Shown: positions 5,823 to 23,241, counted from the first letter of the stretch. The stretch is DNA of 58,965 bases from an uncultured Faecalibacterium sp. (GCA_964547515.1 CAZJOA010000001.1:1-58965), one strand, 5' to 3'. Numbers and translations are program-made. The notes: a model not told the origin generated them from the sequence alone.

Positions 5823-5823
5823 T

Positions 5824-6477: not shown

Positions 6478-7505
6478 GAAAGCTGCTGAACACCCTCTAC
6501 ATCACCAGCGAAGACCTTTTCCTGTCCTGCAAGAACGAGAATGTTGTCGTCAGCCGAGGGGGCGAGGCGGTGTCCCGTTTTCCTCTGCTGAACCTGGAAG
6601 GCATCGTGACCTTCTCCCATGCCGGGGCGACCCCTGCGCTGATGGGCGAATGCGCCCAACGCGGCATCCAGCTGACGTTCATGACCCCGAACGGGCGCTT
6701 TCTGGCGCGGGTGAACGGTATGAGCCAGGGCAATGTGCTGCTGCGCCGGGAGCAATACCGCATCGCGGACAGCGAAGCGCACAGCTGCCGGATCGCGCGC
6801 AACATGATTACCGGGAAGGTCTTCAACAGCCGCTGGGTGCTGGAGCGCACCCTGCGCGACCATGCCCTGCGGGTCGATCAGGCGCGTGTGAGGGAAGCCT
6901 CCGAACGGTTGCAGCAAGCCCTCCCGCTGATCCGGCAAACGGAGGAACTCGACATCCTGCGTGGCCTGGAGGGCGAATCCGCCGTGCAGTACTTCAGCGT
7001 ATTCGGCGAACTGATCCTCAGCCAAAGGGCGGACTTCCCCTTTGACGGCCGCAATCGCCGTCCTCCGCAGGACAACGTGAACGCAATGCTGTCCTTCGCC
7101 TACACCCTGCTGGCCAACGATTGCGCCGCCGCACTGGAAACGAACGGTCTGGATGCCTATGTCGGATTCTTGCACCGGGATCGTCCGGGGCGGAAGTCCC
7201 TTGCGCTCGATCTGGAGGAAGAGCTGCGAGCGCCCTTCGCAGACCGGCTGGTGCTGACGCTCATCAACAACCGCATCATCCAGGACAAGCACTTCGAACG
7301 TCAGGAAAGCGGTACGACCCTGCTGAATGACGCGGGGCGCAGGCTCTTTCTGAAGCACTGGCAGGAGAAAAAGCGCGATGAGATCACCCATCCCTACCTG
7401 AAGGAGAAAATGCCCTGGGGGCTGATCCCCCATGTGCAGGCGCTGCTGCTGGCACGCCATATCCGCGGGGATCTGGATGACTATCCGCCCTTCCTCTGGA
7501 AATGA
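6474..7505 (+). CDS. cas1: Cas1 integrase
   Basis: 343 aa. LNTLYIT..., the length, and the position before cas2 all fit Cas1. Overlaps the cas4 stop. Confidence 0.95.
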   Translation: MRKLLNTLYITSEDLFLSCKNENVVVSRGGEAVSRFPLLNLEGIVTFSHAGATPALMGECAQRGIQLTFMTPNGRFLARVNGMSQGNVLLRREQYRIADSEAHSCRIARNMITGKVFNSRWVLERTLRDHALRVDQARVREASERLQQALPLIRQTEELDILRGLEGESAVQYFSVFGELILSQRADFPFDGRNRRPPQDNVNAMLSFAYTLLANDCAAALETNGLDAYVGFLHRDRPGRKSLALDLEEELRAPFADRLVLTLINNRIIQDKHFERQESGTTLLNDAGRRLFLKHWQEKKRDEITHPYLKEKMPWGLIPHVQALLLARHIRGDLDDYPPFLWK

Positions 7506-7519
7506 CACAAGGAGGACAC

Positions 7520-7810
7520 ATGCTGATCCTCATCACCTACGATGTCAACACCACCACCGCCGCCGGGAAACGACGGCTGCGGATGGTCGCCAAGAAATGC
7601 GTCGCCCATGGCACACGCGTGCAGAATTCCGTCTTCGAATGCGTCCTGGATAACGCGCAGTTCAAGCTGCTCCGCCATGAGCTGGAGCAGACCATCGACC
7701 CGACCTGCGACAGCCTGCGGTTCTACACGCTGGGGAACAATTACCAGGGCAAGGTGACGCACATCGGCGCAAAGGAGACCTACGAAATCGAAGGCGAACT
7801 GATCCTCTGA
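7520..7810 (+). CDS. cas2: Cas2
   Basis: MLILITYDV...NSVFEC is a typical Cas2 N-terminus. ATG 7520 is preceded by AAGGAGG (7509-7515). The ORF track offers an alternative start at 7502. Confidence 0.9.
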   Translation: MLILITYDVNTTTAAGKRRLRMVAKKCVAHGTRVQNSVFECVLDNAQFKLLRHELEQTIDPTCDSLRFYTLGNNYQGKVTHIGAKETYEIEGELIL

Positions 7811-7949
7811 GCCGTGCGAACCGCCAGTGCACACAAAACCCCCGTTCGGTTCGCACCGCCTTGCGCCGGAATAGCGGGCGACTGCGCCCCTGTTCCGCGC
7901 CATCGCCCCGTTCATGCCGGGGCAAAATCGGTACTTTTTGTCGAAAACC

Positions 7950-7983
7950 ACCAATGACGCATGCGCGTGCGTTGGTTGTTTTT
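7950..7983 (+). terminator. terminator-like hairpin in the CRISPR leader, directly before the first repeat
   Basis: ACCAATGACGCA...TGCGTTGGT imperfect stem followed by TGTTTTTG. Confidence 0.3.
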
Positions 7984-7986
7984 GCT

Positions 7987-8020
7987 GTCCCACCCCGCTT
8001 GGGGGATGGAGGATAGAAAG
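7987..8020 (+). CRISPR. leader-proximal type I-C repeat with canonical 5' half and degenerate 3' half (proposed attL hybrid)
   Basis: GTCCCACCCCGCTTGGGGGATGGAGGATAGAAAG, 176 nt after the cas2 stop. Nucleotides 7988-8004 are identical to 20219-20235. The 3' part (GGATAGAAAG) only resembles the I-C handle GGATTGAAAT. Confidence 0.6.
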
Positions 8021-8043
8021 CAAACGAAATTGACCTGAGGACG

Positions 8044-8082
8044 AAAAAACGCCGCAATCCCAACGGTTTCAAGGGATTGCGG
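8044..8082 (-). terminator. rho-independent terminator downstream of the integrase gene
   Basis: CCGCAATCCC (8052-8061) pairs with GGGATTGCGG (8073-8082). On the minus strand the stem is followed by a T-run (A-run 8044-8049 on plus). Confidence 0.6.
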
Positions 8083-8173
8083 TTCCTTTGTGTTATGGGC
8101 GAATGGCATTGATTTTCACCAAAAATGGGCTGGTATTTCGAATAATTGCGTTGTGTAGCTTACCGCGTAGCTG

Positions 8174-9307
8174 TCACGAATCTTTTGTTTTAGAGGCGGC
8201 CGCGATTTTGTTGACCGCCTCGATGGCCTTGTCGTTGTTGATGGTGATATAGTGTTTCGCAGTCGTTGCGTAGTTGCGATGGCGCAGGACGTTTGCGATG
8301 ACGGACGGAGACACGCCGAGAAGCTCAAGCTCAGTCGCGGTGGTATGGCGGGAGGAGTACGGCCGAATCTCAGGGCGGATGTGCAGACGTTCCTTCATTT
8401 CCGCGAAACGCCGATAAAACGTTTTCTTCTCTATTCCGAGGACAAGCCCGGCACGGCTGGTGGATGTAGCGCAAAGGTCAGCGAGGACGGGAACGACGGA
8501 ATCCGACAGGACGATGGGACGTTCGCGGCGCTCTTTGGTTTTCAGGCCGCAGCCGATGATGGTATGCGCGTCCCAGTCGATCATGGAAGGCTTGAGCAGG
8601 AACAGCTCACCAGGCATCATGCCGGTGTAGATCATCAGGAGACACGCCGAGGCGATGCGATCACCGTCCCCGTAGGCGCGCCACAGCGTTTCGATTTCTG
8701 ACGGCGACCACGGGACGGTTTCTGCGGCATTGTTTTCCGGCAGTTGCAACATGGGGACAGGGTTGACCTGGACAAAACCATCTGCAAAGGCACGCTTGAA
8801 AAGGTTGGACATCAGATTTTTTACGTCCTTCGCAGTGTCATATTTCAGGCCGGAAATAGCCTGCTCCATATCCTGCAGTGTGACGGCGTCAATCTGTTAA
8901 TCGCCGAATGCCGGATCAATCCGACGGACAAAAGCTGTTTTGTATGCCATCATCGTGCCCATTCCGGGCTTCTTCCCCGGAGCATCAACATACTGCTGGT
9001 AGAGTTCCGCGACAGTCGGGTCTTTTTTTGTTTGTCTTTCCTCTATTCCTGCGATCACTGCGGACAGATATTCCTGCGCGTCTTTCTTCGTGCGGAAGCC
9101 GGACTTCACCTTACGCTTTTGCGCGCCATCGATAAAGCCGACAGTGTACGCCGCGCACCACCCGGGCCTGTCTGGCCGCTTGTAGACGCTGCCAAGGCCA
9201 TTGCCGTTTTTGCGAGGAGCACGGGCGGGTGGCGTTTGGCTGATACCGCACCAGCAACAGAAAGAGGCCCCTTCAGGGAGGGGCTTTTTGCATTTACGGC
9301 AGTTCAC
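8174..9307 (-). pseudogene. tyrosine integrase interrupted by an in-frame TAA
   Basis: ORFs 8897-9307 and 8174-8869 are in the same frame. The first holds an N-terminal zinc ribbon (CRKC...CCWC) plus arm/SAM-like region. The second holds the catalytic domain (...SRHTTAT...LRHRNYATTAKHYI). They are separated by a single TAA (8897-8899). Confidence 0.85.
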
Positions 9308-9327
9308 ATTATCACCTCAATGATATA

Positions 9328-9777
9328 TCAATTCTTTCCAAGCAGAATGCGGCCAAGATACCCAGCCTGTTTCAGCCGGATCAGAACCACCTCGGGGTGA
9401 GTCAAATCCCACAAAAACCATGCAACCACCGCGACCAGGGCGACGGCCAGGATGATGATCCACCGCAGACGTTGCCGTGCGAGCTTTTTCAACATCGCGA
9501 CCTGCTCTTGGTGCTGGTGGAGGACGACAGCCAGCACCTCGCGGGAGATGCAATCAGACGGCGGAGCATCCGGGGCGGGTGCTTCGGGCGGTGGTGGCAC
9601 GGACGGCGTTAAAAATGCGAGGAGTTGCGAGACGGTCCCGGTCTGCGCGCCGTCTCCGCGCATGATGCGCGAGATGGTCGTTGTGGATACGCCGCTGCCG
9701 TCGGCGATCTCCTGGTATGTGAAGCCGGATTGATCTATCAACAACCTGACGTGATCAATATCGACATGCTCCGACAT
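9328..9777 (-). CDS. membrane-anchored HTH (XRE-like) regulator
   Basis: 149 aa. N-terminal HTH (FTYQEIADGSGVSTTTISRIMRG), Pro-rich linker, C-terminal TM helix (WIIILAVALVAVVAWFLW). Confidence 0.6.
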   Translation of the reverse strand: MSEHVDIDHVRLLIDQSGFTYQEIADGSGVSTTTISRIMRGDGAQTGTVSQLLAFLTPSVPPPPEAPAPDAPPSDCISREVLAVVLHQHQEQVAMLKKLARQRLRWIIILAVALVAVVAWFLWDLTHPEVVLIRLKQAGYLGRILLGKN

Positions 9778-10038
9778 GTTGCAACACTCCCCTCTAAAAT
9801 TGCAGGGTGATTTGGGGGGTCAAATCCCGATTTTGCTGGTTGCATATCCCGCCGGGATGCGCGACAATGGGATCACAACAAGGCAAGGGGGCGAGACGAT
9901 GCGGACAAGACCCAGGCCGCAGGATATCAAGATACACTACCCGTGGCCGCTAAATAATACAATTATATTACGACAAAAAATGGGGAACAGAAAAGCGAAC
10001 AAAGAGAAAAAACAACAAAGGAGGATAAAACGAGACTT

Positions 10039-10191
10039 ATGACAACAAAAAAGTATATCATGAAACTGGTGGAGGCAATCGAGGACGAGGAAGAACTGAA
10101 GCTGGTGCAGGAACTGGTGCAGGGCTTCGCAGCACGAAGCCTGAACAGGAAATACATGAAGGAACGAGCTGAGGCACAAGGGAAAGAATGA
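10039..10191 (+). CDS. small hypothetical protein (50 aa) in an AT-richer spacer
   Basis: Below the ORF-track size cutoff. ATG 10039 follows AGGAGG (10018-10023). Sequence is MTTKKYIMKLVEAIEDEEELKLVQELVQGF... A terminator follows. Confidence 0.3.
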   Translation: MTTKKYIMKLVEAIEDEEELKLVQELVQGFAARSLNRKYMKERAEAQGKE

Positions 10192-10194
10192 AAA

Positions 10195-10224
10195 AGGGCG
10201 CGGCCTTAATGGCTGCGCCTTTAT
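10195..10224. terminator. bidirectional terminator between the small ORF and hicB
   Basis: AGGGCGCGGCC-TTAAT-GGCTGCGCCT stem-loop, flanked by an A-run and a T-run. Confidence 0.5.
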
Positions 10225-10226
10225 TA

Positions 10227-10658
10227 TCATCGAAGGTTCGTATGGTTCTGAACGCCTAACTGACTCATCAGAGCGGACTGGAGCACCTGAGAGAAGTTGA
10301 CCTGCTTTTCCAACGCAAGGGCATTGAGCCAGGCAGGGAGTGAAACTGTGCGGGAAACGCTCTTGTTCTGCTGACCAAGGCGAACAGAGGGCATGAACAC
10401 GTCTACCAATGTGACAACCTCATTCGACGCATGGGGAATGGTCACGACGGCGGACGGCGCGGGAATGGTATCGCCATCCTCCTCCATACCGAAAAGGACA
10501 AGGCCAAGCAGCTCACGGGCGGACAGCATTGCATCCTCATCGGTGGTGCCGCTGGTAGCAACATCCAAGTCGGGGAACACAACGGCGATTTCTTCGCCTT
10601 CCTCATAGGTAAAAATGGCGGGGTAGACGTAACGATTGGGTTTCTTCATGCATGTCAC
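10227..10658 (-). CDS. hicB: HicB antitoxin
   Basis: 143 aa. YPAIFTYEEGEEIAVVFPDL... is a HicB-type N-domain, with an RHH-like C-terminus (VSLPAWLNALALEKQVNFSQVLQSAL). Sits immediately downstream of hicA. Confidence 0.85.
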   Translation of the reverse strand: MTCMKKPNRYVYPAIFTYEEGEEIAVVFPDLDVATSGTTDEDAMLSARELLGLVLFGMEEDGDTIPAPSAVVTIPHASNEVVTLVDVFMPSVRLGQQNKSVSRTVSLPAWLNALALEKQVNFSQVLQSALMSQLGVQNHTNLR

Positions 10659-10688
10659 ATCCTTTCAAGGCGTTAGGGGGTGCGGGGC

Positions 10689-10886
10689 TTAGCGAAAGCG
10701 AAGCCCCGACTGGCGCTCGATGCTGTCAAGCGTTTTACGAGGGATGTCCTTATCCGGGTGCTTGACTGTGACAGTCCCCGGCTTCGTCGGGTGCTTGAAC
10801 TGGTGATGACTTCCTGCTGTGCGGACAAGATACCACCCATCATCCTCAAGCAAGCGGAGAACCTCCCTTGAGGAATAGCTCCTCAT
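10689..10886 (-). CDS. hicA: HicA mRNA-interferase toxin
   Basis: 65 aa. SSREVLRLLEDDGWYLVRTAGSHHQFKHP..PG.VTVKHP is a classic HicA signature. Confidence 0.9.
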   Translation of the reverse strand: MRSYSSREVLRLLEDDGWYLVRTAGSHHQFKHPTKPGTVTVKHPDKDIPRKTLDSIERQSGLRFR

Positions 10887-10910
10887 TGGTATGCACCCCC
10901 TAACGAGTCA

Positions 10911-10939
10911 ATTATAACACATAGAATAATATGTGTCAA
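10911..10939 (-). promoter_or_regulatory. hicAB promoter with embedded palindromic operator
   Basis: On the minus strand: TTGACA (10934-10939), 17 nt, TATAAT (10911-10916). The inverted repeat ACACATA-N6-TATGTGT lies in the spacer. Confidence 0.55.
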
Positions 10940-10942
10940 CGC

Positions 10943-10966
10943 ACAAAAAGACCGCCGAAGCGGCCT
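10943..10966 (-). terminator. terminator of the cI-like repressor gene
   Basis: Minus strand: GGCCGC-TTCG-GCGGTC followed by TTTTTGTG. Confidence 0.6.
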
Positions 10967-10969
10967 TTT

Positions 10970-11314
10970 TTAGTCGTCCAGGATGCGCTGGACAAGATCG
11001 TTGATGTGCTGGAAGTCCTCGACGGTCAGGCGGGGCAGCAGCCGTTCCAGTGCGGCCTTCACGGCGGGCATGTCACGCAGCGCGATCTCCAGCGCAGGGA
11101 CAAGCCCTTCCTTGTATGGCACGCCCTCGCCCGTTTCCAGCCAGACCTCGTTGACGTTGAACTTCTGACAGATCAGCATGCGAATGGATTTGTCAGGGAC
11201 AACTGTGCCGGTTTCATAGGTAGTAATCATTTTCTGAGAAGCACCTATCATACTGCCGAATTCTGTCTGATTCAGTTTGAGGTCTTTTCTGATCTTTCGG
11301 ATACGGTTCTGCAT
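10970..11314 (-). CDS. XRE/cI-like HTH repressor
   Basis: 114 aa. IRKIRKDLKLNQTEFGSMIGASQKMITTYETG is an XRE-type HTH. Divergent from an early rightward promoter. Confidence 0.8.
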   Translation of the reverse strand: MQNRIRKIRKDLKLNQTEFGSMIGASQKMITTYETGTVVPDKSIRMLICQKFNVNEVWLETGEGVPYKEGLVPALEIALRDMPAVKAALERLLPRLTVEDFQHINDLVQRILDD

Positions 11315-11356
11315 TTTATCACCTCCTCACGAAGAGTATAGCACAAAAAGATTATT

Positions 11357-11427
11357 CCTGCAAGGATAAAATTATTTAAAAATTGTCTTGACAAGGATAA
11401 AATGACGTGTTATTATATCCTTGCAAG
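11357..11427 (+). promoter_or_regulatory. genetic-switch region: rightward promoter plus three operator copies
   Basis: TTGACA (11388-11393), 17 nt, TATTAT (11411-11416). GCAAGGATA occurs at 11360-11368, ACAAGGATA at 11391-11399, and inverted (TATCCTTGC) at 11417-11425. Confidence 0.55.
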
Positions 11428-11465
11428 CATAAAACACGACCGAAAGTTATCAGGGAGGTGAAGGC

Positions 11466-11690
11466 ATGGCGAGAACATATGCTGTCCAGATGCTTGAGCA
11501 ACTGGACAAGTGCATTCTCAGCCGGATCGGCGAGGAAGGGCGGCTAAATGTACTGAACGCGATCATGAAGGAAACGGGATGCGTTGGGGAGCTGCCGAAA
11601 ACGTGCCAGGAGACTGGAAAGCCGACAAGAGCTGCGGAGGAGTACTACAGGTGCTTCAAGCAGGTGCTGAAGATGGCGGGAGAAGCGTGA
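11466..11690 (+). CDS. hypothetical early protein (Cro position)
   Basis: 74 aa. GGGAGGTG RBS. First gene of the rightward transcript. No motif recognised. Confidence 0.5.
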   Translation: MARTYAVQMLEQLDKCILSRIGEEGRLNVLNAIMKETGCVGELPKTCQETGKPTRAAEEYYRCFKQVLKMAGEA

Positions 11691-11919
11691 AGCACTGGGC
11701 ATCGTCCGCCGAGTAGTCAAGGCCATTCAGCCGGAGGGTCACATAGGCACAGCAGCGGGAACAGGTGCTGCATCCGCTCATGTGTTCGCAGCCGTTGCAA
11801 GGAAGGAAGAAAGGTTTGCCGTCCTCCTGGATGAAGAACGGAGTGAAAACGGTGAAAGGCTTCCCGGAAGAAAAGGGGCAGAGAACAAGATTATGGGCGG
11901 TGCGGAGACGAGAATCCAT
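11656..11919 (-). CDS. hypothetical Cys-rich protein
   Basis: 87 aa. CNGCEHMSGCSTCSRCC cluster. AAAGGA RBS upstream. Coding status uncertain. Confidence 0.3.
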   Translation of the reverse strand: MDSRLRTAHNLVLCPFSSGKPFTVFTPFFIQEDGKPFFLPCNGCEHMSGCSTCSRCCAYVTLRLNGLDYSADDAQCFTLLPPSSAPA

Positions 11920-11960
11920 TAGAAATCATCCTTTCATTGTGTTATGAGGGAGGTGAGTCA

Positions 11961-12110
11961 GTGAAGCCAATGAGCCACTACGGCGGCTGCGACAGATGCG
12001 AGGATTGCCCCAAGTATCGAAAGTGCTACTTCCACAACCTTGCGTTTCATGTGGTGATGGGATTCGCGTGCGGCCTGATCGGCGCGCTGGTCACGATCAA
12101 ACTTGGCTGA
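11961..12110 (+). CDS. small Cys-rich protein with C-terminal TM helix (49 aa)
   Basis: GTG start after GAGGGAGGTG. CDRCEDCPKYRKC followed by VVMGFACGLIGALVTI. High third-position GC supports coding on the plus strand. Confidence 0.3.
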   Translation: MKPMSHYGGCDRCEDCPKYRKCYFHNLAFHVVMGFACGLIGALVTIKLG

Positions 12111-12377
12111 CCGGTAGGCAGCAAAGCCGTCCGGGGTGATGTGCTGGTCGGAGGATTTGCAATAGATCCAACCGGCATCGATGGCCTCACGCAGGAGGGT
12201 AGGCTATCCTGAGATGGCGGTAACATCCTCAACATGGAAGCGGCCGCTACGAGTCGCAAGGCCAACAACCTTGCTCATGAAGGCAAACATCTCATCATTC
12301 ACAGGGATCACCCTTTCAACATTTTCCTTATCATACCACGCCAACAAGGCGAACGGCAACCGAACGGAGGTGACAAC

Positions 12378-12521
12378 ATGTCCAACACTTGCAAAGACCA
12401 GGCAATGGAAAAGCTGGCCGAGCTGATCAGCAAGTGCCCGGAAGAAAAGAAGCGCGACGTGGAGCTCTTTATGATGGGCTACCTGACGGCACTGGAAAGC
12501 GCGACCAAGAAGCCCGCATAA
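12378..12521 (+). CDS. small hypothetical protein (47 aa)
   Basis: ATG 12378 after GGAGG (12366-12370). Sequence is MSNTCKDQAMEKLAELISKCPEEKKRDVELFMMGYL... Confidence 0.4.
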   Translation: MSNTCKDQAMEKLAELISKCPEEKKRDVELFMMGYLTALESATKKPA

Positions 12522-12557
12522 CCGACACGACCAACAGACAGAAAGGAATGGAACACG

Positions 12558-12782
12558 ATGAACAAGATCAAACTCCCCAACTACAGCAAGTCCCGTTCTG
12601 ACAACCCCGGCGTGATCCGTGTGAGCACGGGCATCTACGACCAGCTCAACGAGCTCTCCAAGATGACGCGCTGGCCGATCAAGACCCTTGCAGACAAGCT
12701 GCTGACCGAGGCCCTCAAGAACGTCGAGCTGGTCGAGTGCAAGCTGTACAACATGGAGATGAAGGAGGACGAGGACGAATGA
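12558..12782 (+). CDS. small putative DNA-binding protein (RHH-like)
   Basis: 74 aa. VIRVSTGIYDQLNELSKMTRWPIKTLADKLLTEAL fits a strand-helix-helix pattern. Acidic tail. Confidence 0.5.
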   Translation: MNKIKLPNYSKSRSDNPGVIRVSTGIYDQLNELSKMTRWPIKTLADKLLTEALKNVELVECKLYNMEMKEDEDE

Positions 12783-12985
12783 ACATGGTCGGAAGCAGCA
12801 GCAACCGCATCCACCGGCAGGGCAACAGCATCCCGGCAAACGAAACACGCTGGATCGTCCCGGTCAGGCCGTACACGCCCCCGAAGCACTCCATGGAGCG
12901 GTTTGAAAATGCCGTCCTGATGGGGGCTGGCGTTGCAGTCGTGATCTTCTCGTTCGCCGTGATGGTGATGGCTGAGATGATGTAA
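12779..12985 (+). CDS. small membrane protein
   Basis: ATGA overlap with the preceding stop. C-terminal TM helix (LMGAGVAVVIFSFAVMVMA). Confidence 0.4.
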   Translation: MNMVGSSSNRIHRQGNSIPANETRWIVPVRPYTPPKHSMERFENAVLMGAGVAVVIFSFAVMVMAEMM

Positions 12986-13199
12986 CGGGGCATCCGCCCC
13001 GCATGCGGCGACCAGGGACAGGCATCGTCTCCCCCGATGGCCTGACGGAGGTGCAACCCCTCCGCGCCGCACCACTGCTGCGCTGGCATGTGCGCAGCAG
13101 GTATCCTCCTTAGGGCTATAAGCCCGAGGCGATGGGGTCTAACCTCTTACCCCATGCCGCCCACCTGCGCGGTCTTATGCGTCAAAGGTGGGCTATCAC

Positions 13200-13270
13200 G
13201 CCGGATTAGCTCAATCGGCAGAGCCACCTCAATATGGAGGACGATACAGGTTCGACCCCTGTATCCGGCA
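13200..13270 (+). tRNA. tRNA-like gene with non-canonical anticodon arm (pseudo-tRNA or specialised tRNA-like RNA)
   Basis: Perfect 7-bp acceptor stem GCCGGAT/ATCCGGC. D arm GCTC-AATCGGCA-GAGC. T arm ACAGG-TTCGACC-CCTGT. The anticodon arm is only CCTC-AATATG-GAGG (4 bp, 6-nt loop), and the total length is 71 nt. Confidence 0.45.
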
Positions 13271-13331
13271 CAAAAAAATAGTCCGCCGGGGACACGACTT
13301 CCCGACGGACAGAAAGGAATGGATATAACAA

Positions 13332-13598
13332 ATGGATGATAACACGAAAAACAACTCCTGTCAAGCCCCTTCCATGGCTGACCTTGCAGGGATGCTTTGC
13401 GTCTTTCTTTGCCCGGCAGACGTTGCCGGTGTGCTGGGATGCACGCCCTACAGCATCAGCAAGGCTGCTGAGACCGAAGAAGGCCGTAAGGGTCTGGGTT
13501 TCCCGGTGATCCGCATCGGCACCAGGACAAAGATCCCGCGCATCCCCTTCCTGCGTTTCCTGGGCTGGGAAGGTCCTGTCGGCAAAATCGGAGCTTGA
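13332..13598 (+). CDS. excisionase-like / MerR-type HTH protein
   Basis: 88 aa. ...LGCTPYSISKAAE...FPVIRIGTRTKIPRIPFLRFLG resembles Xis-family winged HTH proteins. Confidence 0.5.
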   Translation: MDDNTKNNSCQAPSMADLAGMLCVFLCPADVAGVLGCTPYSISKAAETEEGRKGLGFPVIRIGTRTKIPRIPFLRFLGWEGPVGKIGA

Positions 13599-13612
13599 AA
13601 GGAGCAATCAAC

Positions 13613-14581
13613 ATGATCACCAAGGTATCCATCGCGGACATGGACAAGGCCGCATGGCTCGAAGAGCGCAAGAAGACCATCGGCGGCAGCGAGATCGGCG
13701 CGATTCTCGGCATGAACCCCTGGCAGAGCGCCTACAGCCTGTGGGCGGAGCGCACCGGCCGCATCCCCGCATTCGGCGGAAACCTCCAGACCGAATTCGG
13801 CACCTTCATGGAGGAATTCGTCGCTCAGCTTTTCGAGAAGCAGAGCGGCAAGCGCGTACAGCGAACCAACTTCATCTACCGCAACGACAAGTACCCCATC
13901 CTGCATTCGTCCCCTGACCGCCTGCTGGTCGGCGAGGACGCAGGGCTGGAAATCAAGACCACCAGCGCATACAACGCCCCCAAGTTCAAGGGTGAGGAAT
14001 TCCCGGGGCAGTATTACGCACAGGCCGTGCAGTACATGGCTGTCACGGAGCGCCGACAGTGGTACATCGCCGTGCTGATCGGAAACTCCGACTTCCGCAT
14101 CTACCATCTGCACCGCGATCCGGGCGTACCCAAGCCCGACTTCTGCATCACCTCCCTGCTGGTGGAGGACAGCGAGATCGAAGCCCTGTACAATGCCGCG
14201 CAGGACTTCATGCACTGCCTGGAGCTGGATGTTCCCCCGGCCATGGACGGCAGTGAGGCCACAGACGACGCGCTGAAGGAGGTTTTCGGTTTCTCCAACG
14301 GCGAGACCATCAAGCTTTACGGCCGCGACGGCATGGTGGAGCGCTGGCTCGACCTGAACAAGCAGATCAAGGCGCTGGAGGCAGAGCAGGAGACCATCAA
14401 GCACACGCTGTGCGCGGATCTGGGCGAGAACGAAGTCGGCACTGCCGGTGCGCACAAGGTCACCTGGAAGTTCAAAGCCGGGGCGAAGCGCTTTGACGCG
14501 AAGAAGGCCGTCAGCGAACACCCGGAGCTGGTCAGCTACTACACCGAAGGCAAGCCCACGCGAGTCTTCAGCATCAAATAA
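13613..14581 (+). CDS. YqaJ-like recombination exonuclease
   Basis: AWLEERKKTIGGSEIGAILGMNPWQSAYSLWAERTG is a YqaJ signature. ATG 13613 after AAAGGAG. Paired with recT. Confidence 0.85.
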   Translation: MITKVSIADMDKAAWLEERKKTIGGSEIGAILGMNPWQSAYSLWAERTGRIPAFGGNLQTEFGTFMEEFVAQLFEKQSGKRVQRTNFIYRNDKYPILHSSPDRLLVGEDAGLEIKTTSAYNAPKFKGEEFPGQYYAQAVQYMAVTERRQWYIAVLIGNSDFRIYHLHRDPGVPKPDFCITSLLVEDSEIEALYNAAQDFMHCLELDVPPAMDGSEATDDALKEVFGFSNGETIKLYGRDGMVERWLDLNKQIKALEAEQETIKHTLCADLGENEVGTAGAHKVTWKFKAGAKRFDAKKAVSEHPELVSYYTEGKPTRVFSIK

Positions 14582-14594
14582 GGAGGACGAAGAA

Positions 14595-15431
14595 ATGCCT
14601 ACCACCATCGCAAAGGCCGCGGAAAAGCGCACGGAAGCGCCCGTGACCACCGTCACGCAGCAGAAGAAGCCCGTCACCCTGCAGGACTACGTTCAGCGCA
14701 TGAGCGGCCAGATCAAGATGGCCCTGCCTGCGAACCTGACCCCGGAGCGCTTTCAGCGCATCGTGCTGACGGCCATTTCCAGCAACGCCAAGTTGCAGGA
14801 ATGCACACCCACGTCCTTCCTTGGCGCGATGATGACCGCCGCACAGCTCGGTATCGAACCCAACACGCCCCTGGGGCAGGGTTATCTGCTCCCCCGGCGC
14901 AACGGCAAGACCGGCCAGACAGAATGCCAGTTCCAGCTCGGCTACAAGGGCCTGATCGACCTTGCCTACCGCAGCGGCAACATCTCCAACATCGGCGCGT
15001 ACACCGTGTACGCCAACGACGATTTTCACGTCCAGTATGGCCTTGACCCGACCATCAACCACACCCCCTGTCTGAAGGCAGACCGCGGCGACCCCATCGC
15101 CTTCTACGCCTACTACAAGACCAAGGACGGCGGATTTGGTTTCGAGGTCATGGGGGTGGAGGAAGTCCGTGCTCACGCAAAGCGTTTCAGCGACGCAGTG
15201 AAGAAGGGCTGGTCCTCCCCCTGGGACACCAACTTTGAAGAGATGGCCAAGAAGACCGTGCTCAAGAAGGTTTTGAAGTACGCACCCATCTCCACCGAAG
15301 TCGGCGGGAAGGTTGCCATGGACGAGAGCGTGCACGACACCATCAGCGCGGACATGGTTAGTGAGCCGATCACCTACATCGTCGAGGAGACCGGCGAGAT
15401 CATCAATGACAACGGCGGTGAAAACGCATGA
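14595..15431 (+). CDS. recT: RecT single-strand annealing protein
   Basis: ATG 14595 after AGGAGG (14581). ...ERFQRIVLTAISSNAKLQECTPTSFLGAMMTAAQLGIEPN... is typical RecT. Confidence 0.9.
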   Translation: MPTTIAKAAEKRTEAPVTTVTQQKKPVTLQDYVQRMSGQIKMALPANLTPERFQRIVLTAISSNAKLQECTPTSFLGAMMTAAQLGIEPNTPLGQGYLLPRRNGKTGQTECQFQLGYKGLIDLAYRSGNISNIGAYTVYANDDFHVQYGLDPTINHTPCLKADRGDPIAFYAYYKTKDGGFGFEVMGVEEVRAHAKRFSDAVKKGWSSPWDTNFEEMAKKTVLKKVLKYAPISTEVGGKVAMDESVHDTISADMVSEPITYIVEETGEIINDNGGENA

Positions 15432-15922
15432 TCCTGCTGGAAGACACCCGCAATCAGGCTGGAAAGCACAAGAACATCAAAAAGCAGATCGAGGCCATGG
15501 GGCACAAGATCGCCCGGTCAAAGCTCTACGTCGGCGACTACCAGCTTGCCAACAACGGCAGCGTCTGCGTGGACACCAAGTCCGGCGTGCTGGAGCTGGC
15601 CATGGACATCTGCCGAGACCACAGGCGTTTTTCTGCAGAGTGCAAAAAGGCACAGGAGGCAGGAATCCGGCTCGTCATCCTGACCGAGGAGGCACTGCCT
15701 CCCGGCGGGCTGGCGGGCTGGAAGTCCCCCGTTTGGCACACCACCACCGACAGGCACAAAGCTGGAGAACCCATCAGCAAGGTCAGCCCGGAGACGCTTT
15801 TCAAGGCGATCCACACCATGTCCAGCAGGTACGGAGTCGAGTTTCACTTCTGCCACAAGGACGAAACCGGCAAGTGCCTGATGGACATCCTGACAGGAGG
15901 CGACAACCATGACGGTCCGTGA
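15428..15922 (+). CDS. ERCC4-type nuclease-like protein (possible junction resolvase)
   Basis: 164 aa. LYVGDYQL...VCVDTKSGVLELAMDI resembles the GDY...ERKS..D motif. Confidence 0.45.
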   Translation: MILLEDTRNQAGKHKNIKKQIEAMGHKIARSKLYVGDYQLANNGSVCVDTKSGVLELAMDICRDHRRFSAECKKAQEAGIRLVILTEEALPPGGLAGWKSPVWHTTTDRHKAGEPISKVSPETLFKAIHTMSSRYGVEFHFCHKDETGKCLMDILTGGDNHDGP

Positions 15923-16532
15923 CGCTGCACCGATCATCAAAAAGGCCGTGACGAGCCGTCAGGTCGTCGAGTTTTACGGTTTCCAGCCCAACAGGGCAGG
16001 GTACATCCGCTACCCATTCCACGGCGAAAAAACCGCGTCGCTGAAGGTGCACAAGTCCGGCTGGTACTGCTACGGTTGCCATCAGGGTGGAGACGCAGTC
16101 GAATTCATCCGCCTGTACGAGAACTGCAGCTTTTACACCGCTGTCCGCAAGGCTGACGAGTACTTTTCCCTTGGGCTGGTCAAGGCCGAGAAGATCACCC
16201 TGGACGGCATTTATGCCGCAAAGGAAGCGGAAAAGCGCAAGCGTGATGAGGAACGCGCCCTCAGCATTACAAAGACGGCCTTTCTGGCGCTTCTGGATCG
16301 TGACTGGCGGGATTGCTGGGCTTTTTACAAAGACGCTCACAGCACCCCGAAAGACGCGAGAAATGCAACCCAATGGTGGAACATGGCCATTGCAGAAGAC
16401 ACCATGAAGACCATCGACTACTTCGAGGGGCTGGTGGAGGAGGCCGGGAGCGTCAGCGAGGTCAACGAGCTGATGGCAAGGTACGACAGGGGGGTGCTCC
16501 GCGATGATGCCGGATTTGTCATCGGTGCATAA
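15909..16532 (+). CDS. CHC2 zinc-finger primase-like protein
   Basis: 207 aa. YPFHGEKTASLKVHKSGWYCYGCHQGGDAVEFI is a DnaG-type CHC2 zinc finger. Confidence 0.75.
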   Translation: MTVRDAAPIIKKAVTSRQVVEFYGFQPNRAGYIRYPFHGEKTASLKVHKSGWYCYGCHQGGDAVEFIRLYENCSFYTAVRKADEYFSLGLVKAEKITLDGIYAAKEAEKRKRDEERALSITKTAFLALLDRDWRDCWAFYKDAHSTPKDARNATQWWNMAIAEDTMKTIDYFEGLVEEAGSVSEVNELMARYDRGVLRDDAGFVIGA

Positions 16533-17745
16533 CAGCGCATCCATGCCGACGTACAAGCCGACCATTCAGACCTTCCTGAGCCTGCTGCAGGACACCTTCT
16601 CCGACAGCGTGCGCTTCAACGCGCTCACCGGCAAGGCTGAACAGCTTTCCGGCGGCAAGTGGGTCCCATGGAAGGATGCAGACGATTCAGCCGTGCGCCT
16701 CTACTTCCAGTCCACCTACGGACTGAGCCACCGCGCGAACCTGGACGACGCTTTCCGCGTTTTCCTCCGCACACGCACGGTGGATCCGCTGGTGGAGATG
16801 CTGGACAAGCTGGAATGGGACGGCGAATCCCGGATCACCAACTGCCTGCACCGCCTGACAGGATGCGAGGACACGCCCTACAGCAGGGAAGTCAGCCGGT
16901 TGGTTTTCGCTGGCGGCATTCACCGCGCTTACAATCCCGGATGCAAATTCGACGACGTGCCGGTGCTGGTAGGCCGTCAGGGCGGAGGCAAATCCTCGCT
17001 GGTCCGCACGCTGGCCATGCAGGACGAGTTCTTCAAGGAGGTCAAGACCTTTGAGGGGCGAGAGGGCATCGAGGCGCTTAACGGCGGCTGGATCATCGAG
17101 ATCCCCGAGATGCTGGCCACGGCGCGCGCCAAGGAAGTCGAGCTGGTCAAGGCTTACATTACCCGGCAGGTGGACTCAGCACGGGCAGCCTACGCCAAGT
17201 ACGTCGAGGACCTTCCGCGGCGATGCATCTTCATCGGCACAACCAACAGCCCCAACTTCCTGGCCGACAAGACCGGCAACAGACGCTTCTACCCCATCAT
17301 CTGCAAGCTCAGCGGATATGAGTTTTTTGACCACATCGAGGAGCACAAGGCATACGTCCGGCAGTGCTGGGCTGAGGCCAAGGTGCTTTATGAGCGCGGC
17401 GAACTCAAACCATACGCAAGCATGGATCTGCTGGCCGACATCCGCGAACAGCAGAAGAGCGCAGAGGAGGACGACCCCCGAGAAGGCCTGATCCGCGCAT
17501 ACTGCGAGCGGCTGCCGGTTGGCGCCAAGGTCAGCGTGCTGGAGCTTTGGGTGAGGGCACTGCGGCAGGACGCTTCCATCAGGATGCCGACGCGCAGCGA
17601 TTCGCGAGATATTGGCAACATCATGGTGGCGCTCCCCGGCTGGGAGAAGATGGGCAAGACTTTCAGGAGCCCCGATTTCGGTGTGCAGAAGGGCTTCATA
17701 AAGGTCTTCCAGGCGGTTGAAAGACCGCCCGACTGCCCGTTTTAA
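16504..17745 (+). CDS. VirE/VapE-family P-loop replication protein
   Basis: 413 aa. VLVGRQGGGKSS (Walker A), GGWIIEIPEM, RRCIFIGTTN..FLADKTGNRRFYPI. Confidence 0.8.
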   Translation: MMPDLSSVHNSASMPTYKPTIQTFLSLLQDTFSDSVRFNALTGKAEQLSGGKWVPWKDADDSAVRLYFQSTYGLSHRANLDDAFRVFLRTRTVDPLVEMLDKLEWDGESRITNCLHRLTGCEDTPYSREVSRLVFAGGIHRAYNPGCKFDDVPVLVGRQGGGKSSLVRTLAMQDEFFKEVKTFEGREGIEALNGGWIIEIPEMLATARAKEVELVKAYITRQVDSARAAYAKYVEDLPRRCIFIGTTNSPNFLADKTGNRRFYPIICKLSGYEFFDHIEEHKAYVRQCWAEAKVLYERGELKPYASMDLLADIREQQKSAEEDDPREGLIRAYCERLPVGAKVSVLELWVRALRQDASIRMPTRSDSRDIGNIMVALPGWEKMGKTFRSPDFGVQKGFIKVFQAVERPPDCPF

Positions 17746-17764
17746 GCGGAATTCTGCCGTTTTT

Positions 17765-17925
17765 GTAACCTAAGAGCGATTTGGCAAAAATTGGGGTTAC
17801 ACTCGAAAGCCGGTAAAATCAAGGGGTTTACCCTAATGTAACCTATTTTTAGATGTAACTATAAAAATATAAAATATAAATATATATATAGAGTGGGAAA
17901 GGGGGTCCGGAGCTTTACAAGTTAC
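17765..17925. repeat. putative replication origin: GTAAC(C/T) iterons flanking an AT-rich tract
   Basis: GTAACC at 17765 and 17838, GGTTAC at 17795, GTAACT at 17855, GTTAC at 17921. A nearly pure A/T tract lies at 17844-17891 within otherwise GC-rich DNA. Located directly 3' of the VirE gene. Confidence 0.45.
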
Positions 17926-17956
17926 GGCCCCGAGGACAGAAAGGAGGTGAAAAGGC

Positions 17957-18241
17957 ATGACCGATATGAACACGAACATGATGCGCGAGGTCTTCAAGCT
18001 GCTGAGCAAGTACGAGAATCCGCCTGTTGGCCTGGATGAAGCCTGGTGGGCAGGTCTGACGCGGGGCGCGGCGGAGATTTACAACAAGTACCCGTCGCCA
18101 CTGACGCGCGGCCTGCTCTACGGTCTCATTGACGGCCAGGAGGAGCGGTACAAGCTTGCCCTGAGGGTCGAGGCGGAACGTCAGCGCGTGGCAGGTGAGC
18201 AGATGCAGATGGACACGACCTACGGCGGCACGCTTTCCTGA
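17957..18241 (+). CDS. hypothetical protein
   Basis: 94 aa. AAGGAGGTG RBS. No motif recognised. Confidence 0.5.
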   Translation: MTDMNTNMMREVFKLLSKYENPPVGLDEAWWAGLTRGAAEIYNKYPSPLTRGLLYGLIDGQEERYKLALRVEAERQRVAGEQMQMDTTYGGTLS

Positions 18242-18463
18242 CGGTGTCGAGACTCGGATCAGATGCCATGTTGGCCATCCTCATTGCCCTGTGGGGGTCT
18301 GGGAAGGTGAATGGAAGGACACAAAAAACGCGAATGCCTCTAAAACGCTCAAAAAAGGCTTCAGGAGCGCTTGCAGATTCGGACGGAGAAATTCACGAGG
18401 ATGATGCTGGAACGGCTCAGAGGGCGGTTTTTGTGAGAAAGAGGGGCGTTCACGGCGAAAGGA

Positions 18464-18850
18464 ATGGATATAACAGTGAATAGGCAACAGAAAAGGGCGC
18501 AGGAACGCGCAGAAGCAAAGGCTGCGGCAAAGATCAAGGCATTCCGCAAGACCAGCCTGCTGGCGGAGGATGTTCGCCAGCGGGCATGGCAGGAAGGGTT
18601 CAAGGAAGGCGAACGATTCGCCACAAAGGCCTTCTACGCCGCGTCCTGCGTCGCACTGCACAGGCTTTACGGCTTCCACGCAGTCCGGCTGGAGCGCTTT
18701 CTGCTGGCGGTGGAGGATATTGTTCTCCACACGCTGACGACTGAGGAGGCCATGGAGGCGGCGCTGAAGGAGGGCGGGATCAAGATCAACCTGGTCGAGA
18801 CCTTCCCCGAGGACAGGATCGGGAAGGAGAAGGATGCATGTGGAAAATGA
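18464..18850 (+). CDS. hypothetical protein
   Basis: 128 aa. Lys/Ala-rich N-terminus. The start lies inside the 19-nt block repeated at 13312. Confidence 0.45.
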   Translation: MDITVNRQQKRAQERAEAKAAAKIKAFRKTSLLAEDVRQRAWQEGFKEGERFATKAFYAASCVALHRLYGFHAVRLERFLLAVEDIVLHTLTTEEAMEAALKEGGIKINLVETFPEDRIGKEKDACGK

Positions 18851-20160
18851 CCATAATGGGAAAGACACGGCGATCATTGCTGCATCTGTTGCCCTTGATG
18901 GAACGCAATACTATATGGGTGTTGTCGTTTCGCAGAACAGCGAAATGTCAAATATGTATGAAGTGCATGATGCGGTAGTCGTGGAAAAACAAAAAGAAGG
19001 TAACACCGCTCTTACAAAGACTCCTTCTGCTGGTGAATACCAGACAAGGAGAGGCGGTGACCTTCCTATAGCTATTATACTCTCTGACCTTGCAAATTAC
19101 AATAGGGAATTTGCGAAAACTGAGCGTCAATACGCCCGCCGCGACACGGAATACCTGAGTGCAGTGGAAGCGGGAGACACCGCAGAAGCTCAGCAGATGG
19201 TGGATGAAGCGGCGGAGCAGGCGTTCAGCAAGAGCAAGATCAGGGGCGCTGAGGGGAAGCTGTTGAAGGTGTACCATGGGACGAATGCAGAATTCACTGT
19301 GTTCGACACCAGCAAACAAGGCGGCGTGAATGGCACGGTGGAAGGATATGGAATTTACCTTTCCGATAATCAGGATGTGACGAAAAATTATGGCGAACGC
19401 CAGATCGAAGCCTTTGCCAACATCACAAACCCGGCGACAAGCTGGAAGAAAACAATCACACAGGCGAAACTTGTGAAGCTCATCAAGGCATCCTGCACGC
19501 AAGAAGCACAGCGCATGGTAGAAGATGGAGAATACGACAACGTTCGCGAAGCCATGCGTGATACATGGATCAGCAACTACACCGATACCTATAGCGTTTC
19601 GATGGAAACAGCGATTCGAGATACGGCAAGAAGTATCCTTGACGTGAACGACGATGATATGAGCATCGTGCAGGAAGTCATGGCCGGGATGGCGATCCGT
19701 GGGTATCAGAATGGCCGACAAGGCCGGGAAAGCCCTGGACAAGATGACAGAGCCGACCACACGCGATGTGAATACCATCAGCATCAGGGACTATCAGGAC
19801 AACCGAGGGAACACAACACCCGTCAGCCATCAGCCCCGCCATGACGGCGAACCACTCGACAAGGGGACCGTGACCAAGTGGGTGGACGCGATGTGGGACG
19901 ATGACGGAATCAAGGGCGAGAAGTACACCTGGCATCAGGCGCAGCAGTATGCGCTGAACATGGGCATCACCGGCGAGCAACGGAAGTTGGAGTTTTACTG
20001 GGCGATGAACGCCATATACAGCGACTATCACGCTGCCGGAAAAAAGTTCGGTGTGGACGTGCCTGAATTCTACGCGTGCCTGGCGAAGCTCTTTATTGAG
20101 GATGCAGACGCAGTAGACAACAAGGTGCAGGAGTACGTCGAGCACGTTGTGAAGCATTGA
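18834..20160 (+). pseudogene. ART-like (polyvalent-protein type) gene broken by a frameshift
   Basis: ORF 18834-19844 contains KVYHGTNAEFTVFD...GYGIYLSD. It then runs into low-complexity sequence where ORF 19699-20160 continues in another frame with a 146-nt overlap. The 5' 270 nt are visibly lower in GC. Confidence 0.5.
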
Positions 20161-20217
20161 TTGGGCAGCTTGCGCGTAGCTTACCTAAATCCAGCAAATG
20201 CAGTGAAATGCACATTA

Positions 20218-20250
20218 TTCCCACCCCGCTTGGGGTGGGTGGATTGAAAT
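20218..20250 (+). CRISPR. solitary canonical type I-C CRISPR repeat (proposed attR hybrid)
   Basis: TTCCCACCCCGCTTGGGGTGGGTGGATTGAAAT. Has an 8-bp stem CCCACCCC/GGGGTGGG, a GCTT loop and a GGATTGAAAT handle, as in known I-C repeats. No further repeat downstream. Confidence 0.7.
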
Positions 20251-20372
20251 GAGGGGACGACCGGCGAGGTAGATGCATGGGCAAAAGAGCACAGAGATGA
20301 TCCCCTGTTTACCGACTGTTACGCGAGCAAGTATGTGTTTTGCCACAAGTAGAAGTAAGGAGAATGACGAAA

Positions 20373-20804
20373 ATGGTTGAACCGATGGTGCTTACAATCA
20401 ATGGCCGTGAGTACATTCAGGCAGCTGACTGGTGCAATGCAGTCGGCATGTCCTGTAATGCGTTTTACCAGCGCGTCGCCCGTGATGCGATGCCGGACGC
20501 GATCAAGGTAGGCCGAATCTGGATGATGCCCAAGGACGCGGCGCTCCCTGACCTCCGCAAGCGTCACCGCCCGGCGGAGGTGGTGGAAACGGTCGAACAG
20601 CACGGAACGACCTATTACATCAAGCGGTACGGCAACGCCTCGTACAAGGTGGGGTACATCAACCGCAACACCGGCCGCGAGACGCATCTGCCCTTGACGG
20701 TGGACAGCGTGGAGGCGGCGGAGGAATACATCAAGACCATGGCAAGCGTCGACCCAATGCACGAGCTGCATGGACGAAAAAATGAAGGAGGATACAAAAA
20801 ATGA
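20373..20804 (+). CDS. MGE-type HTH (Xis/MerR-like) protein
   Basis: ...EYIQAADWCNAVGMSCNAFYQRVARDAMPDAIKVGRIWMMPKDA. ATG 20373 lies 10 nt after AAGGAG. The track start at 20340 is a TTG. Confidence 0.5.
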   Translation: MVEPMVLTINGREYIQAADWCNAVGMSCNAFYQRVARDAMPDAIKVGRIWMMPKDAALPDLRKRHRPAEVVETVEQHGTTYYIKRYGNASYKVGYINRNTGRETHLPLTVDSVEAAEEYIKTMASVDPMHELHGRKNEGGYKK

Positions 20805-20965
20805 AGATTACGGATGGCAACGCACCGTCGAAATCAGAATGGTGGTTTGGCAGGAGACGAACTGGAGTCCTGACATGTCTCAAGATATTCTCGAGGCCTG
20901 TGGGCTTAAGCGCGATGATAACGATGCGTATATCCTGCTCGACGTCCCACCTCGCCTGGGGGTGA

Positions 20966-22803: not shown

Positions 22804-22805
22804 CA

Positions 22806-23151: not shown

Positions 23152-23175
23152 TGACGCCGGCAGAAAGATTTCTCA

Positions 23176-23204
23176 TTGCAACAGCCGCGCTTTTCTGCTA
23201 CAAT
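23176..23204 (+). promoter_or_regulatory. promoter of the HD-nucleotidase gene
   Basis: TTGCAA (23176-23181), 17 nt, TACAAT (23199-23204). Confidence 0.5.
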
Positions 23205-23241
23205 AGTCAGGCAAATGACGATTATCGGAGGCCTTATCCCC

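Follow-up and report, generated by a model that had tools for sequence, protein, structure and literature searches.

A decayed prophage in the leader-proximal repeat of a type I-C CRISPR locus from an uncultured Faecalibacterium, probably placed there by a tyrosine integrase

The CRISPR-Cas locus

In a 58,965-nucleotide (nt) stretch of DNA from an uncultured Faecalibacterium sp. (GCA_964547515.1 CAZJOA010000001.1:1-58965), hereafter the window, a type I-C CRISPR locus is followed by a 12.2-kb element of phage-related DNA with a repeat-like sequence at either end. A preliminary description of the window had proposed that this element integrated into the leader-proximal repeat and split it into two hybrid attachment sites, attL on the leader side and attR on the far side. 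The features at issue are as follows.

138-7810, plus strand: complete type I-C cas operon
138-2516, plus strand: cas3
2495-3220, plus strand: cas5d
3121-4980, plus strand: cas8c/csd1
4977-5822, plus strand: cas7
5824-6477, plus strand: cas4
6474-7505, plus strand: cas1
7502-7810, plus strand: cas2 (stop at 7810)
7811-7986, plus strand: CRISPR leader, 176 nt, ending in GTTGTTTTTGCT
7987-8020, plus strand: site 1 (attL), GTCCCACCCCGCTTGGGGGATGGAGGATAGAAAG; repeat 5' half GTCCCACCCCGCTTGGGG fused to a phage-derived 3' half GATGGAGGATAGAAAG
20218-20250, plus strand: site 2 (attR), TTCCCACCCCGCTTGGGGTGGGTGGATTGAAAT; phage-derived first base and arm with the 17-nt core (TTCCCACCCCGCTTGGGG), then the chromosomal repeat 3' half TGGGTGGATTGAAAT

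The whole signature gene set of type I-C (cas8c/csd1, cas5d, cas7/csd2, cas3, cas4, cas1 and cas2) is present and full length in the window strain. All cas genes have Pfam and NCBIfam matches above cut-off (Cas_Csd1, 351 bits; Cas_Cas5d, 131 bits; Cas_Cas7, 283 bits), and Cas3 matches both the cas3_HD and cas3_core domains. The same operon occurs in related contigs (L001, L005-L008). The leader is near-identical in contigs L001-L014, where it lies within blastn alignments of 96.8-99.95% identity to the window and is followed by an intact repeat. Its junction with the repeat, GCT/GTC, is that of the B. halodurans I-C substrate (PMC6519985). No repeat-spacer array was found anywhere in the window: after the element there is one repeat, attR, and one degenerate copy at 20944-20973, and nothing more that is array-like. 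The insertion had been expected to uncouple the leader from its array, a description that does not fit a locus with no array left downstream.

Two hybrid repeats bound the element

Site 1 begins 176 nt past the cas2 stop and shares with site 2 an identical 17-nt core, TCCCACCCCGCTTGGGG, at 7988-8004 and 20219-20235. The pair is as it had been described and is non-random. Joining the outer halves of the two sites gives back a 33-nt repeat; when ≤3 mismatches are allowed this occurs once in the window, where 100 shuffles led to an expectation of 0. Beyond the core the two halves differ, as had been noted; the 3' half of site 1 is not unrelated to that of the repeat, however, since 11 of 16 positions match with one gap in a hand alignment. 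attR is a structurally complete I-C repeat that folds like the canonical one (-17.4 kcal/mol), whereas the hairpin of attL is weakened (-11.9 kcal/mol).

The repeat itself has the traits of type I-C: a length of 32-33 nt, a stable stem-loop with an 8-bp stem (-17.4 kcal/mol), a 3' tail ending in GTGGATTGAAAT and, in the related contig L002, a repeat-spacer unit directly after the leader. Its last 12 nt are those of the B. halodurans I-C repeat (PMC6519985). An Rfam search gave no match to a CRISPR-DR family.

The left side of the element was also recovered independently. A Logan contig from two samples (L294) is 100% identical to the window over 7970-12833, including the leader, attL and a stop codon (TAA) within the integrase gene. 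Because this contig comes from other sequencing runs, the left junction and the integrase pseudogene are not assembly artefacts of the window contig.

Relatives carry the empty site

Relatives of the locus were found by a Cas1 search of short public assemblies, many of which hold the window's own protein or a 98%-identical one. Contigs with either Cas1 run past cas2 into the leader and an intact repeat. Among those with a Cas1 100% identical to that of the window, one (L004) ends in the leader followed by GTCCCACCCCGCTTGGGGTGGGTGGATTGAAAT, exactly the 33-mer predicted by joining the outer halves of attL and attR; a second (L003) has the leader and an intact repeat; and a third (L002) has the leader, a first repeat (R1, loop GCTC), a 36-nt spacer and a second repeat (R2, loop GCTT). 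The group with a 98%-identical Cas1 (L005, L007-L010, L012-L014) has the leader and a single repeat with no spacer. The empty site that had been called for thus exists, and because these relatives carry the leader with one or more repeats, and L002 an R1-spacer-R2 unit, the repeat is a genuine I-C repeat in array context.

The phage attachment site and further insertions

The element's integrase has a full-length homologue of 95% identity (P0121) and another of 77% (P0123). In contigs with the unintegrated form of the phage the order is replication genes, a helix-turn-helix (HTH) gene, the integrase gene (int), ~190 nt, the attachment (att) core and then, on the opposite strand, a DUF7841 gene; past DUF7841 lie small genes, a holin, an endolysin and a very large tail-side protein. 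A 44.6-kb contig with a 65%-identical integrase (L208) has the same order. The adjacency of int, att core and DUF7841 is what was expected of a phage attachment site (attP) from which the window's two ends derive. The attP of the 77% relatives (L045/L047) contains GTCCCACCCCGCTCGGGGTGGGTG, a 24-nt stretch identical to the start of the first repeat of the locus, with the full 8-bp hairpin.

Insertions into I-C repeats were found at three or more further loci (L006/L046, L291 and L060), so that other copies are bounded by such repeats, as had been anticipated. In one sample (SRR22923237), a cas-operon contig (L006) ends in the leader followed by GTCCCACCCCGCTCGGGGTGGGTG and ACTCAG, and an integrase contig (L046) has these 30 nt, reverse-complemented, at its own end. 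Through this overlap the two contigs together read leader, 24 nt of repeat and phage arm, and a 77% relative is thus inserted in the same first repeat. The second case (L291) is a different I-C locus, with 69% nt identity to the window from cas4 to cas2 and a Cas3 of 709 amino acids (aa). Here the order is leader, GTCTCTCCCCGCCCGGGGAGAGTGGATTGAAAT, a 37-nt spacer, a hybrid repeat GTCTCTCCCCGCCCGGGG joined to ATGGAGGATAGAAAGCAAACGG, and int, with the insertion in the second repeat. Its hybrid repeat, arm and integrase are 95.8% identical at the nt level to window 7987-9302, which indicates that the same phage type sits in a second, quite different I-C repeat. The core of the closest attP-form relatives (L040-L044), CCCCGCCCGGGG, matches the centre of this L291-type repeat. 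The third case, found by a scan of species-representative genomes, is a Ca. Limiplasma metagenome-assembled genome (MAG; L060, integrase 38% identical), which has I-C genes from cas3 to cas2, the leader, R1, a 34-nt spacer, a hybrid repeat GTCGTCCCTCACGGAGGGA running into gtatgattt, and int. A Bacillota MAG (L048, integrase 44%) has int, ~150 nt, a hybrid first repeat ggtctacTCCCCCGCGTGGGGACGTGGGTTGAAAT and then 42 more I-C repeats; its orientation is inverted and this reading is less certain. The spacers of L002, L291, L060 and L048 gave no match to the phage DNA of the window and the relatives compared.

A different kind of joint was seen in one contig of the 95%-integrase group (L043, 1814-3468), where an L040-type arm runs into an I-C cas3 that breaks off at about codon 492 of 709. 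We considered and rejected site-specific targeting of cas3: the hairpin ends 6 nt short of the joint (GGGA/ACGCCCGCCCGGGG), and an intact cas3 (L291, 1134-3263) has no core at that place. The joint may instead reflect a deletion or an illegitimate event, perhaps one that removed the rest of the cas operon beside a prophage.

Probable integration by site-specific recombination

Taken together, the observed junctions, empty sites, attP order in relatives, further I-C insertions and decay of the element lead us to conclude, with a probability of about 0.88, that site-specific recombination by a tyrosine integrase brought a temperate phage of uncultured gut Clostridia into the leader-proximal I-C repeat. 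The preliminary proposal of an attP that mimics the repeat is thereby supported. On this account, attP would have lain between int and the DUF7841 gene, with a core copying the repeat stem-loop, CCCACCCC-GCTT-GGGG. A crossover inside the 17-nt identity block would then have produced attL on the leader side (repeat 5' half and phage 3' half) and attR on the other (phage 5' end and repeat 3' half). That this integrase catalysed the event, and where within the block the strands crossed, we deduce from the arrangement of the sequences. The prophage later decayed: deletions took away the packaging, head, tail and lysis genes, ~30 kb in all, and int gained a nonsense codon. Because of that codon and the loss of the late genes, the insertion would now be fixed, barring help in trans from a related integrase. 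Candidates for such help are the integrases of 95-96% identity to P0121 in other public samples (L040-L044, L291), one of them from the same run series.

Several points weigh against this conclusion. The closest attP-form relatives (L040-L044, integrase 95%) have the different core given above and different flanks. The integrase family is without the usual Arg of the TGxR motif, GMMPGE being invariant where TGxRxxE is usual, and no excisionase (xis-like gene) was identified among the small open reading frames (ORFs) of the window. Support from another assembly (L294) covers only the attL side, so that attR is without it, and the circular junction of this exact phage copy, predicted as CACATTATTCCCACCCCGCTTGGGGGATGGAGGATAGAAAGCAAACG, was looked for and not found. 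Finally, the DNA right of attR (20251-21205) differs from what follows the repeat in the empty-site contigs; because it is not in those contigs, the pre-insertion state of the window strain is not fully reconstructed. In a separate scan of IMG/VR, the core CCCACCCCGCTYGGGG gave 25 matches, none with attP flanks, and we read them as unrelated chance matches.

We also weighed other ways in which such an arrangement could arise. A repeat-like phage site might have joined the array by general homologous recombination, through host RecA or phage RecT and YqaJ, and not through the integrase. The element does have genes for both RecT and a YqaJ exonuclease, RecT-type annealing could make use of identity blocks of 17-24 nt, and phage-CRISPR recombination via spacers is documented. 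The repeat-like core lies, however, exactly where the family has its att core, ~190 nt past int, as the positional homologue of the tRNA-Ser anticodon-stem core of relatives, and L291 and L060 share the geometry with quite different repeat sequences; we regard this route as very unlikely. Still less likely is that site 2 is not attR but a phage-borne solitary repeat unit (SRU), either a Racr (RNA anti-CRISPR) or a mini-array remnant, within a larger element extending to ~23.1 kb. Phage SRUs that mimic repeats, including those of type I-C, are known inhibitors (PMC10651486), low GC content continues to ~23150, also at third codon positions (GC3), and a polyvalent-protein gene and a second, degenerate repeat (694 nt on) lie to the right of site 2. 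Yet homology to intact phages ends at the site 2 core, no further phage gene stands between DUF7841 and attP in any attP-form relative, and 20251-23160 has no similarity to the phage contigs compared. Moreover, the 3' half of site 2 is that of the chromosomal repeat and differs from the phage half, which site 1 and L291 have. In the free phage, attP may nevertheless double as a Racr.

The least likely explanation of all is an assembly chimera in which the repeat-like sequence served to join a phage contig to the CRISPR locus. Metagenome assemblies are often broken or misjoined at CRISPR repeats, and many Logan contigs end inside the repeat. The shared block is only 17 nt, though, which is under the usual k-mer sizes; leader, attL and int lie on one contig at 100% identity in L294, which comes from other sequencing runs; and equivalent junctions are present in L291 and L006. 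Integrase-mediated insertion into the repeat remains the reading that we follow below.

A tRNA-targeting integrase family

Phage tyrosine integrases with a bacterial attachment site (attB) in the anticodon stem-loop region of a tRNA are well established among those that use tRNA and tmRNA genes as integration sites. Relatives of the element's integrase at 59-65% identity (L208-L210) use tRNA-Ser(GCU): L209 and L210 are insertions adjoining it, and the attP of L208 carries the 3' part of the tRNA from the anticodon stem onward. Many relatives at 32-67% identity also sit at tRNA-Ser(GCU), and of 80 genome loci in the wider family, 27 have a tRNA-Ser(GCT) gene 110-320 nt past int, as do 2 metagenome loci. 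By default the wider family targets the anticodon stem-loop region of this tRNA. When the att cores are aligned on their arms, a hairpin of C-rich arm, loop and G-rich arm falls at the same position in all of them, as CTCCC-N7-GGGAG in the tRNA core and CCCC-N4-GGGG in the I-C repeat core. We infer that a hairpin-shaped core is bound by the integrase at both arms and that its likeness to the anticodon stem led to capture of the I-C repeat, the switch having run from tRNA to repeat. Several branches of the family would have been retargeted in this way, with an attP core that matches the repeat of each host.

The element thus resembles tRNA-targeting phages in the protein family of its integrase and in having a hairpin core at the same distance from the arms. 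In contrast to them, neither it nor its nearest relatives carry tRNA sequence at the ends, and the core hairpin is that of the CRISPR repeat. Residues R320, R342-H343 and Y353 are conserved in the integrase family; its first catalytic arginine (Arg I) is not in the motif where tyrosine recombinases usually have it. We had considered the sequence YTGMMPGE as a second defect of the window integrase (Arg to Met) and rejected this, as GMMPGE is invariant in nine family members.

Known phages are distant. Integrase relatives in IMG/VR are only 36-42% identical, identity to deposited phages is at most 37%, and phage and plasmid collections contain no close cultured relative of the phage. Against the phage collection, P0121 matched 16 Streptococcus phage records, all below 60% identity and at 22-25% among the matches listed.

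Two side observations concern other members of the family. In a Ca. Limiplasma contig (L088, 1780-1900), int is followed by the 3' half of tRNA-Ser(GCU) and a second integrase-like ORF, with a cas3 fragment 3 kb away. We rejected it as a cas-linked insertion, because its att site is of the tRNA-Ser type despite the cas3 fragment 3 kb from int; it is a pile-up of elements near a decayed cas locus. In three contigs with 36%-identical integrases (L154, L163 and L174), a solitary type I-E-like repeat, CTTTCCCCGCATTTGCGGGGGTGATCC, lies ~135 nt past int (L154, 11240-11268), and type I-E-like arrays follow 1-1.7 kb further on; the array repeat of L163 closely matches the solitary unit, which may be an att site, an SRU or part of a phage-borne array.

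Content and decay of the element

Between the two hybrid sites the element has the following features.

8021-8173, minus strand: integrase-side phage arm, with the integrase terminator at 8050-8065 (terminator scan)
8174-9307, minus strand: tyrosine integrase pseudogene, 377 codons (zinc ribbon, Arm-DNA-bind_4, Phage_integrase)
9328-11314, minus strand: lysogeny module, with an HTH protein (9328-9777) and a CI-like HTH_19 repressor (10970-11314)
10227-10658 and 10689-10886, minus strand: HicB and HicA, within the lysogeny module, the latter from the Pfam annotation of the 100%-identical contig L294
13200-13271, plus strand: phage-borne tRNA-like gene with an aberrant anticodon loop (Rfam tRNA, 44.3 bits; ARAGORN)
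13595-17745, plus strand: recombination and replication module (YqaJ exonuclease, RecT, ERCC4-type nuclease, CHC2 primase zinc finger, VapE-like helicase/primase)
18835-19713, plus strand: fragment of an ART-PolyVal polyvalent-protein gene, 879 nt, between two deletion joints (Pfam)
19699-20217, plus strand: DUF7841 gene, N-terminally truncated (to 20160), and DUF7841-side phage arm, by homology to the attP-adjacent gene

The integrase, repressors and replication module that had been described are thus present. The xis-like gene was not confirmed, and the integrase is a pseudogene: an in-frame TAA at 8897-8899, where relatives have Lys, splits it into a part matching PF00589 (52 bits, 8174-8869) and a part matching PF14657 (37 bits, 8897-9307). 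The window copy therefore has no intact reading frame, and the same stop occurs in L294, whereas P0121 is full length at 377 aa. For the integrase-side arm, identity is 91% to L040-L044, starting at 8030, and 95.8% to L291.

Comparison with L040 gives 87-91% nt identity over 8030-9323, 12297-18827 and 19708-20249, the middle segment being 91% identical to both L040 and L041. Homology to L040 ends at 18827 and restarts at 19708, and deletion joints lie at ~18827-18835 and 19708-19713, where packaging, head, tail and lysis genes would be expected. None of these genes, and nothing from the late region of the L040 type, was found in the element. The truncated DUF7841 protein has 91% aa identity to the copy adjoining attP in L040-L044 and 83% to that in L045/L047. 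Two small conserved phage genes lie between the VapE-like gene and the ART-PolyVal fragment. Because the element is 87-91% identical to parts of the L040 phage and yet lacks the late region wholly, it is a decayed, non-autonomous prophage remnant that has lost ~30 kb. The integrative element of the preliminary description is not an intact one. With a nonsense codon in int and no late genes, it would be capable of neither excision nor propagation by itself. The analysis identified no anti-CRISPR protein.

The HicA/HicB toxin-antitoxin pair (10227-10886, minus strand) could help to retain the remnant. ARAGORN could not assign the anticodon loop of the tRNA-like gene at 13200-13271; L040, the 95% relative, has a tRNA-Thr(TGT) at the matching place. 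The ART-PolyVal fragment (18835-19713) is 98.9% identical to L002 3205-4083, the middle of a chromosomal polyvalent gene that follows the array there. In this part the window's own polyvalent gene (21035-22909) is dissimilar in DNA sequence. This points to an exchange of modules between phage and resident remnants.

DNA to the right of attR

The chromosomal side of attR holds two features.

20251-21205, plus strand: unexplained 955 nt, missing from empty-site relatives and not part of the prophage
21035-22909, plus strand: MuF_C and ART-PolyVal polyvalent-protein gene; from 21206 onward, the sequence directly after the last repeat in relatives

Within the first, an ORF at 20373-20804 (143 aa, with a good ribosome-binding site) lies between attR and the degenerate repeat and is missing from all related contigs. 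It had no family, phage or plasmid match and, taken as 20340-20804, no relatives in an IMG/VR protein scan. The degenerate I-C repeat, GTCCCACCTCGCCTGGGGGTGAAATGAAAT (20944-20973), lies 694 nt past attR and overlaps the end of a 66-aa ORF; by hand alignment, 26 of 30 positions match the repeat after a 3-nt deletion, and it may be an old terminal repeat. The polyvalent protein likewise had no relatives in the IMG/VR protein scan, 20251-23160 had no match in phage or plasmid collections, and a self-comparison of 17800-23300 revealed no internal DNA duplication.

In the empty-site relatives, the last repeat runs straight into the equivalent of window 21206 onward (GCGCGCAAGGTGCGCGAGG...; L002 from 2682, L005 from 7828). 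Just before this point, the window has TTC (21203-21205), the protospacer-adjacent motif of type I-C, for which the chance occurrence is 1 in 64. Because TTC precedes 21206 and the repeat of the relatives joins there, the arrangement suggests that the distal array of those relatives was deleted when a self-derived spacer recombined with the protospacer it came from, which lies 232 nt past the terminal repeat.

Discussion

The preliminary description knew of no element family that uses a CRISPR repeat as attB. One has in fact been described: ΦAP1.1, a temperate phage of S. pyogenes, has a type II-A CRISPR repeat as its attB (Varble et al., bioRxiv 10.1101/2020.10.09.333658; Nat Microbiol 2021). 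Its attP shares 8 bp with the repeat, the first repeat is preferred, and downstream spacers are neutralised; in natural lysogens the arrays are mostly eroded to a single repeat, and cycles of integration and excision erase spacers (bioRxiv 10.1101/2020.10.09.333658). The same study found no prophage in S. pyogenes I-C loci (bioRxiv 10.1101/2020.10.09.333658). A 2025 paper names ΦAP1.1 as the precedent for phage repeat targeting (PMC11837452), a 2026 review gives it as an example of prophage integration that disrupts immunity, and the literature searched gives this one phage-host pair only, ΦAP1.1 and S. pyogenes type II-A, for phage integration into CRISPR repeats. As with ΦAP1.1, the repeat is here split into attL and attR by a temperate phage, and the attP of its 77% relatives (L045/L047) shares sequence with the repeat. 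The case differs in its type I-C target, its identity block of 17-24 nt, its uncultured high-GC Clostridia host and, for the window copy, its state as a decayed remnant with a broken integrase. No record named ΦAP1.1 was among the matches listed for P0121. The long repeat mimicry and the several independent loci set the present case apart.

Two other groups of elements invite comparison. Phage SRUs and Racrs have been described, with integration into arrays mentioned as a suggested role (Camara-Wilpert et al. 2023, PMC10651486). The attP of L045/L047 is like these in being a single, intergenic repeat look-alike in a phage genome that matches the CRISPR subtype of the host; unlike them, it is a demonstrated recombination site, from hybrid junctions and empty sites. 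Tn7-like transposons target cyanobacterial CRISPR arrays and insert in spacers, not repeats (PMC11837452). They too are mobile elements that evolved to land in CRISPR arrays, whereas the element described here is an integrase-driven phage that lands in repeats.

The consequences for the window strain can be judged from the anatomy of the locus. The cas genes are intact and there is no spacer; the leader abuts a hybrid repeat with an altered 3' half, and the only good repeat, attR, is 12.2 kb away and has no leader. The strain has probably lost both adaptation and immunity. The arrays of all close relatives are tiny, with 0 or 1 spacer. This parallels the erasure of spacers in ΦAP1.1 lysogens, to which it is linked by correlation only. 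A wider scenario, to which we would give somewhat less than even odds, is that in gut Clostridia (MAGs of Oscillospirales and Christensenellales) a whole temperate phage lineage switched from tRNA-Ser(GCU) to I-C repeats, with attP matched to the host, and that rounds of integration, excision and deletion erode arrays to 0-1 spacers, attP possibly serving a Racr-like role as well.

The insertion extends a phenomenon described for type II-A to type I-C, a class 1 system common in gut anaerobes. Repeat targeting has here arisen in an unrelated integrase family, with a plausible origin from a similarly shaped tRNA target, and from one I-C locus to another the attP core follows the repeat of the host. 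I-C loci with intact cas genes and yet only one or two repeats thereby gain a concrete explanation, and some phage "solitary repeat units" would be attachment sites. Pipelines that annotate prophages and CRISPR loci will get such cases wrong, and the intact relatives are a source of integrases with putative specificity for CRISPR repeats. If spacer-protospacer recombination did produce the repeat/TTC-protospacer joint, it would be a second route of array loss. If the wider scenario holds, integration of this kind would be a heritable, protein-free disarming of type I CRISPR immunity.

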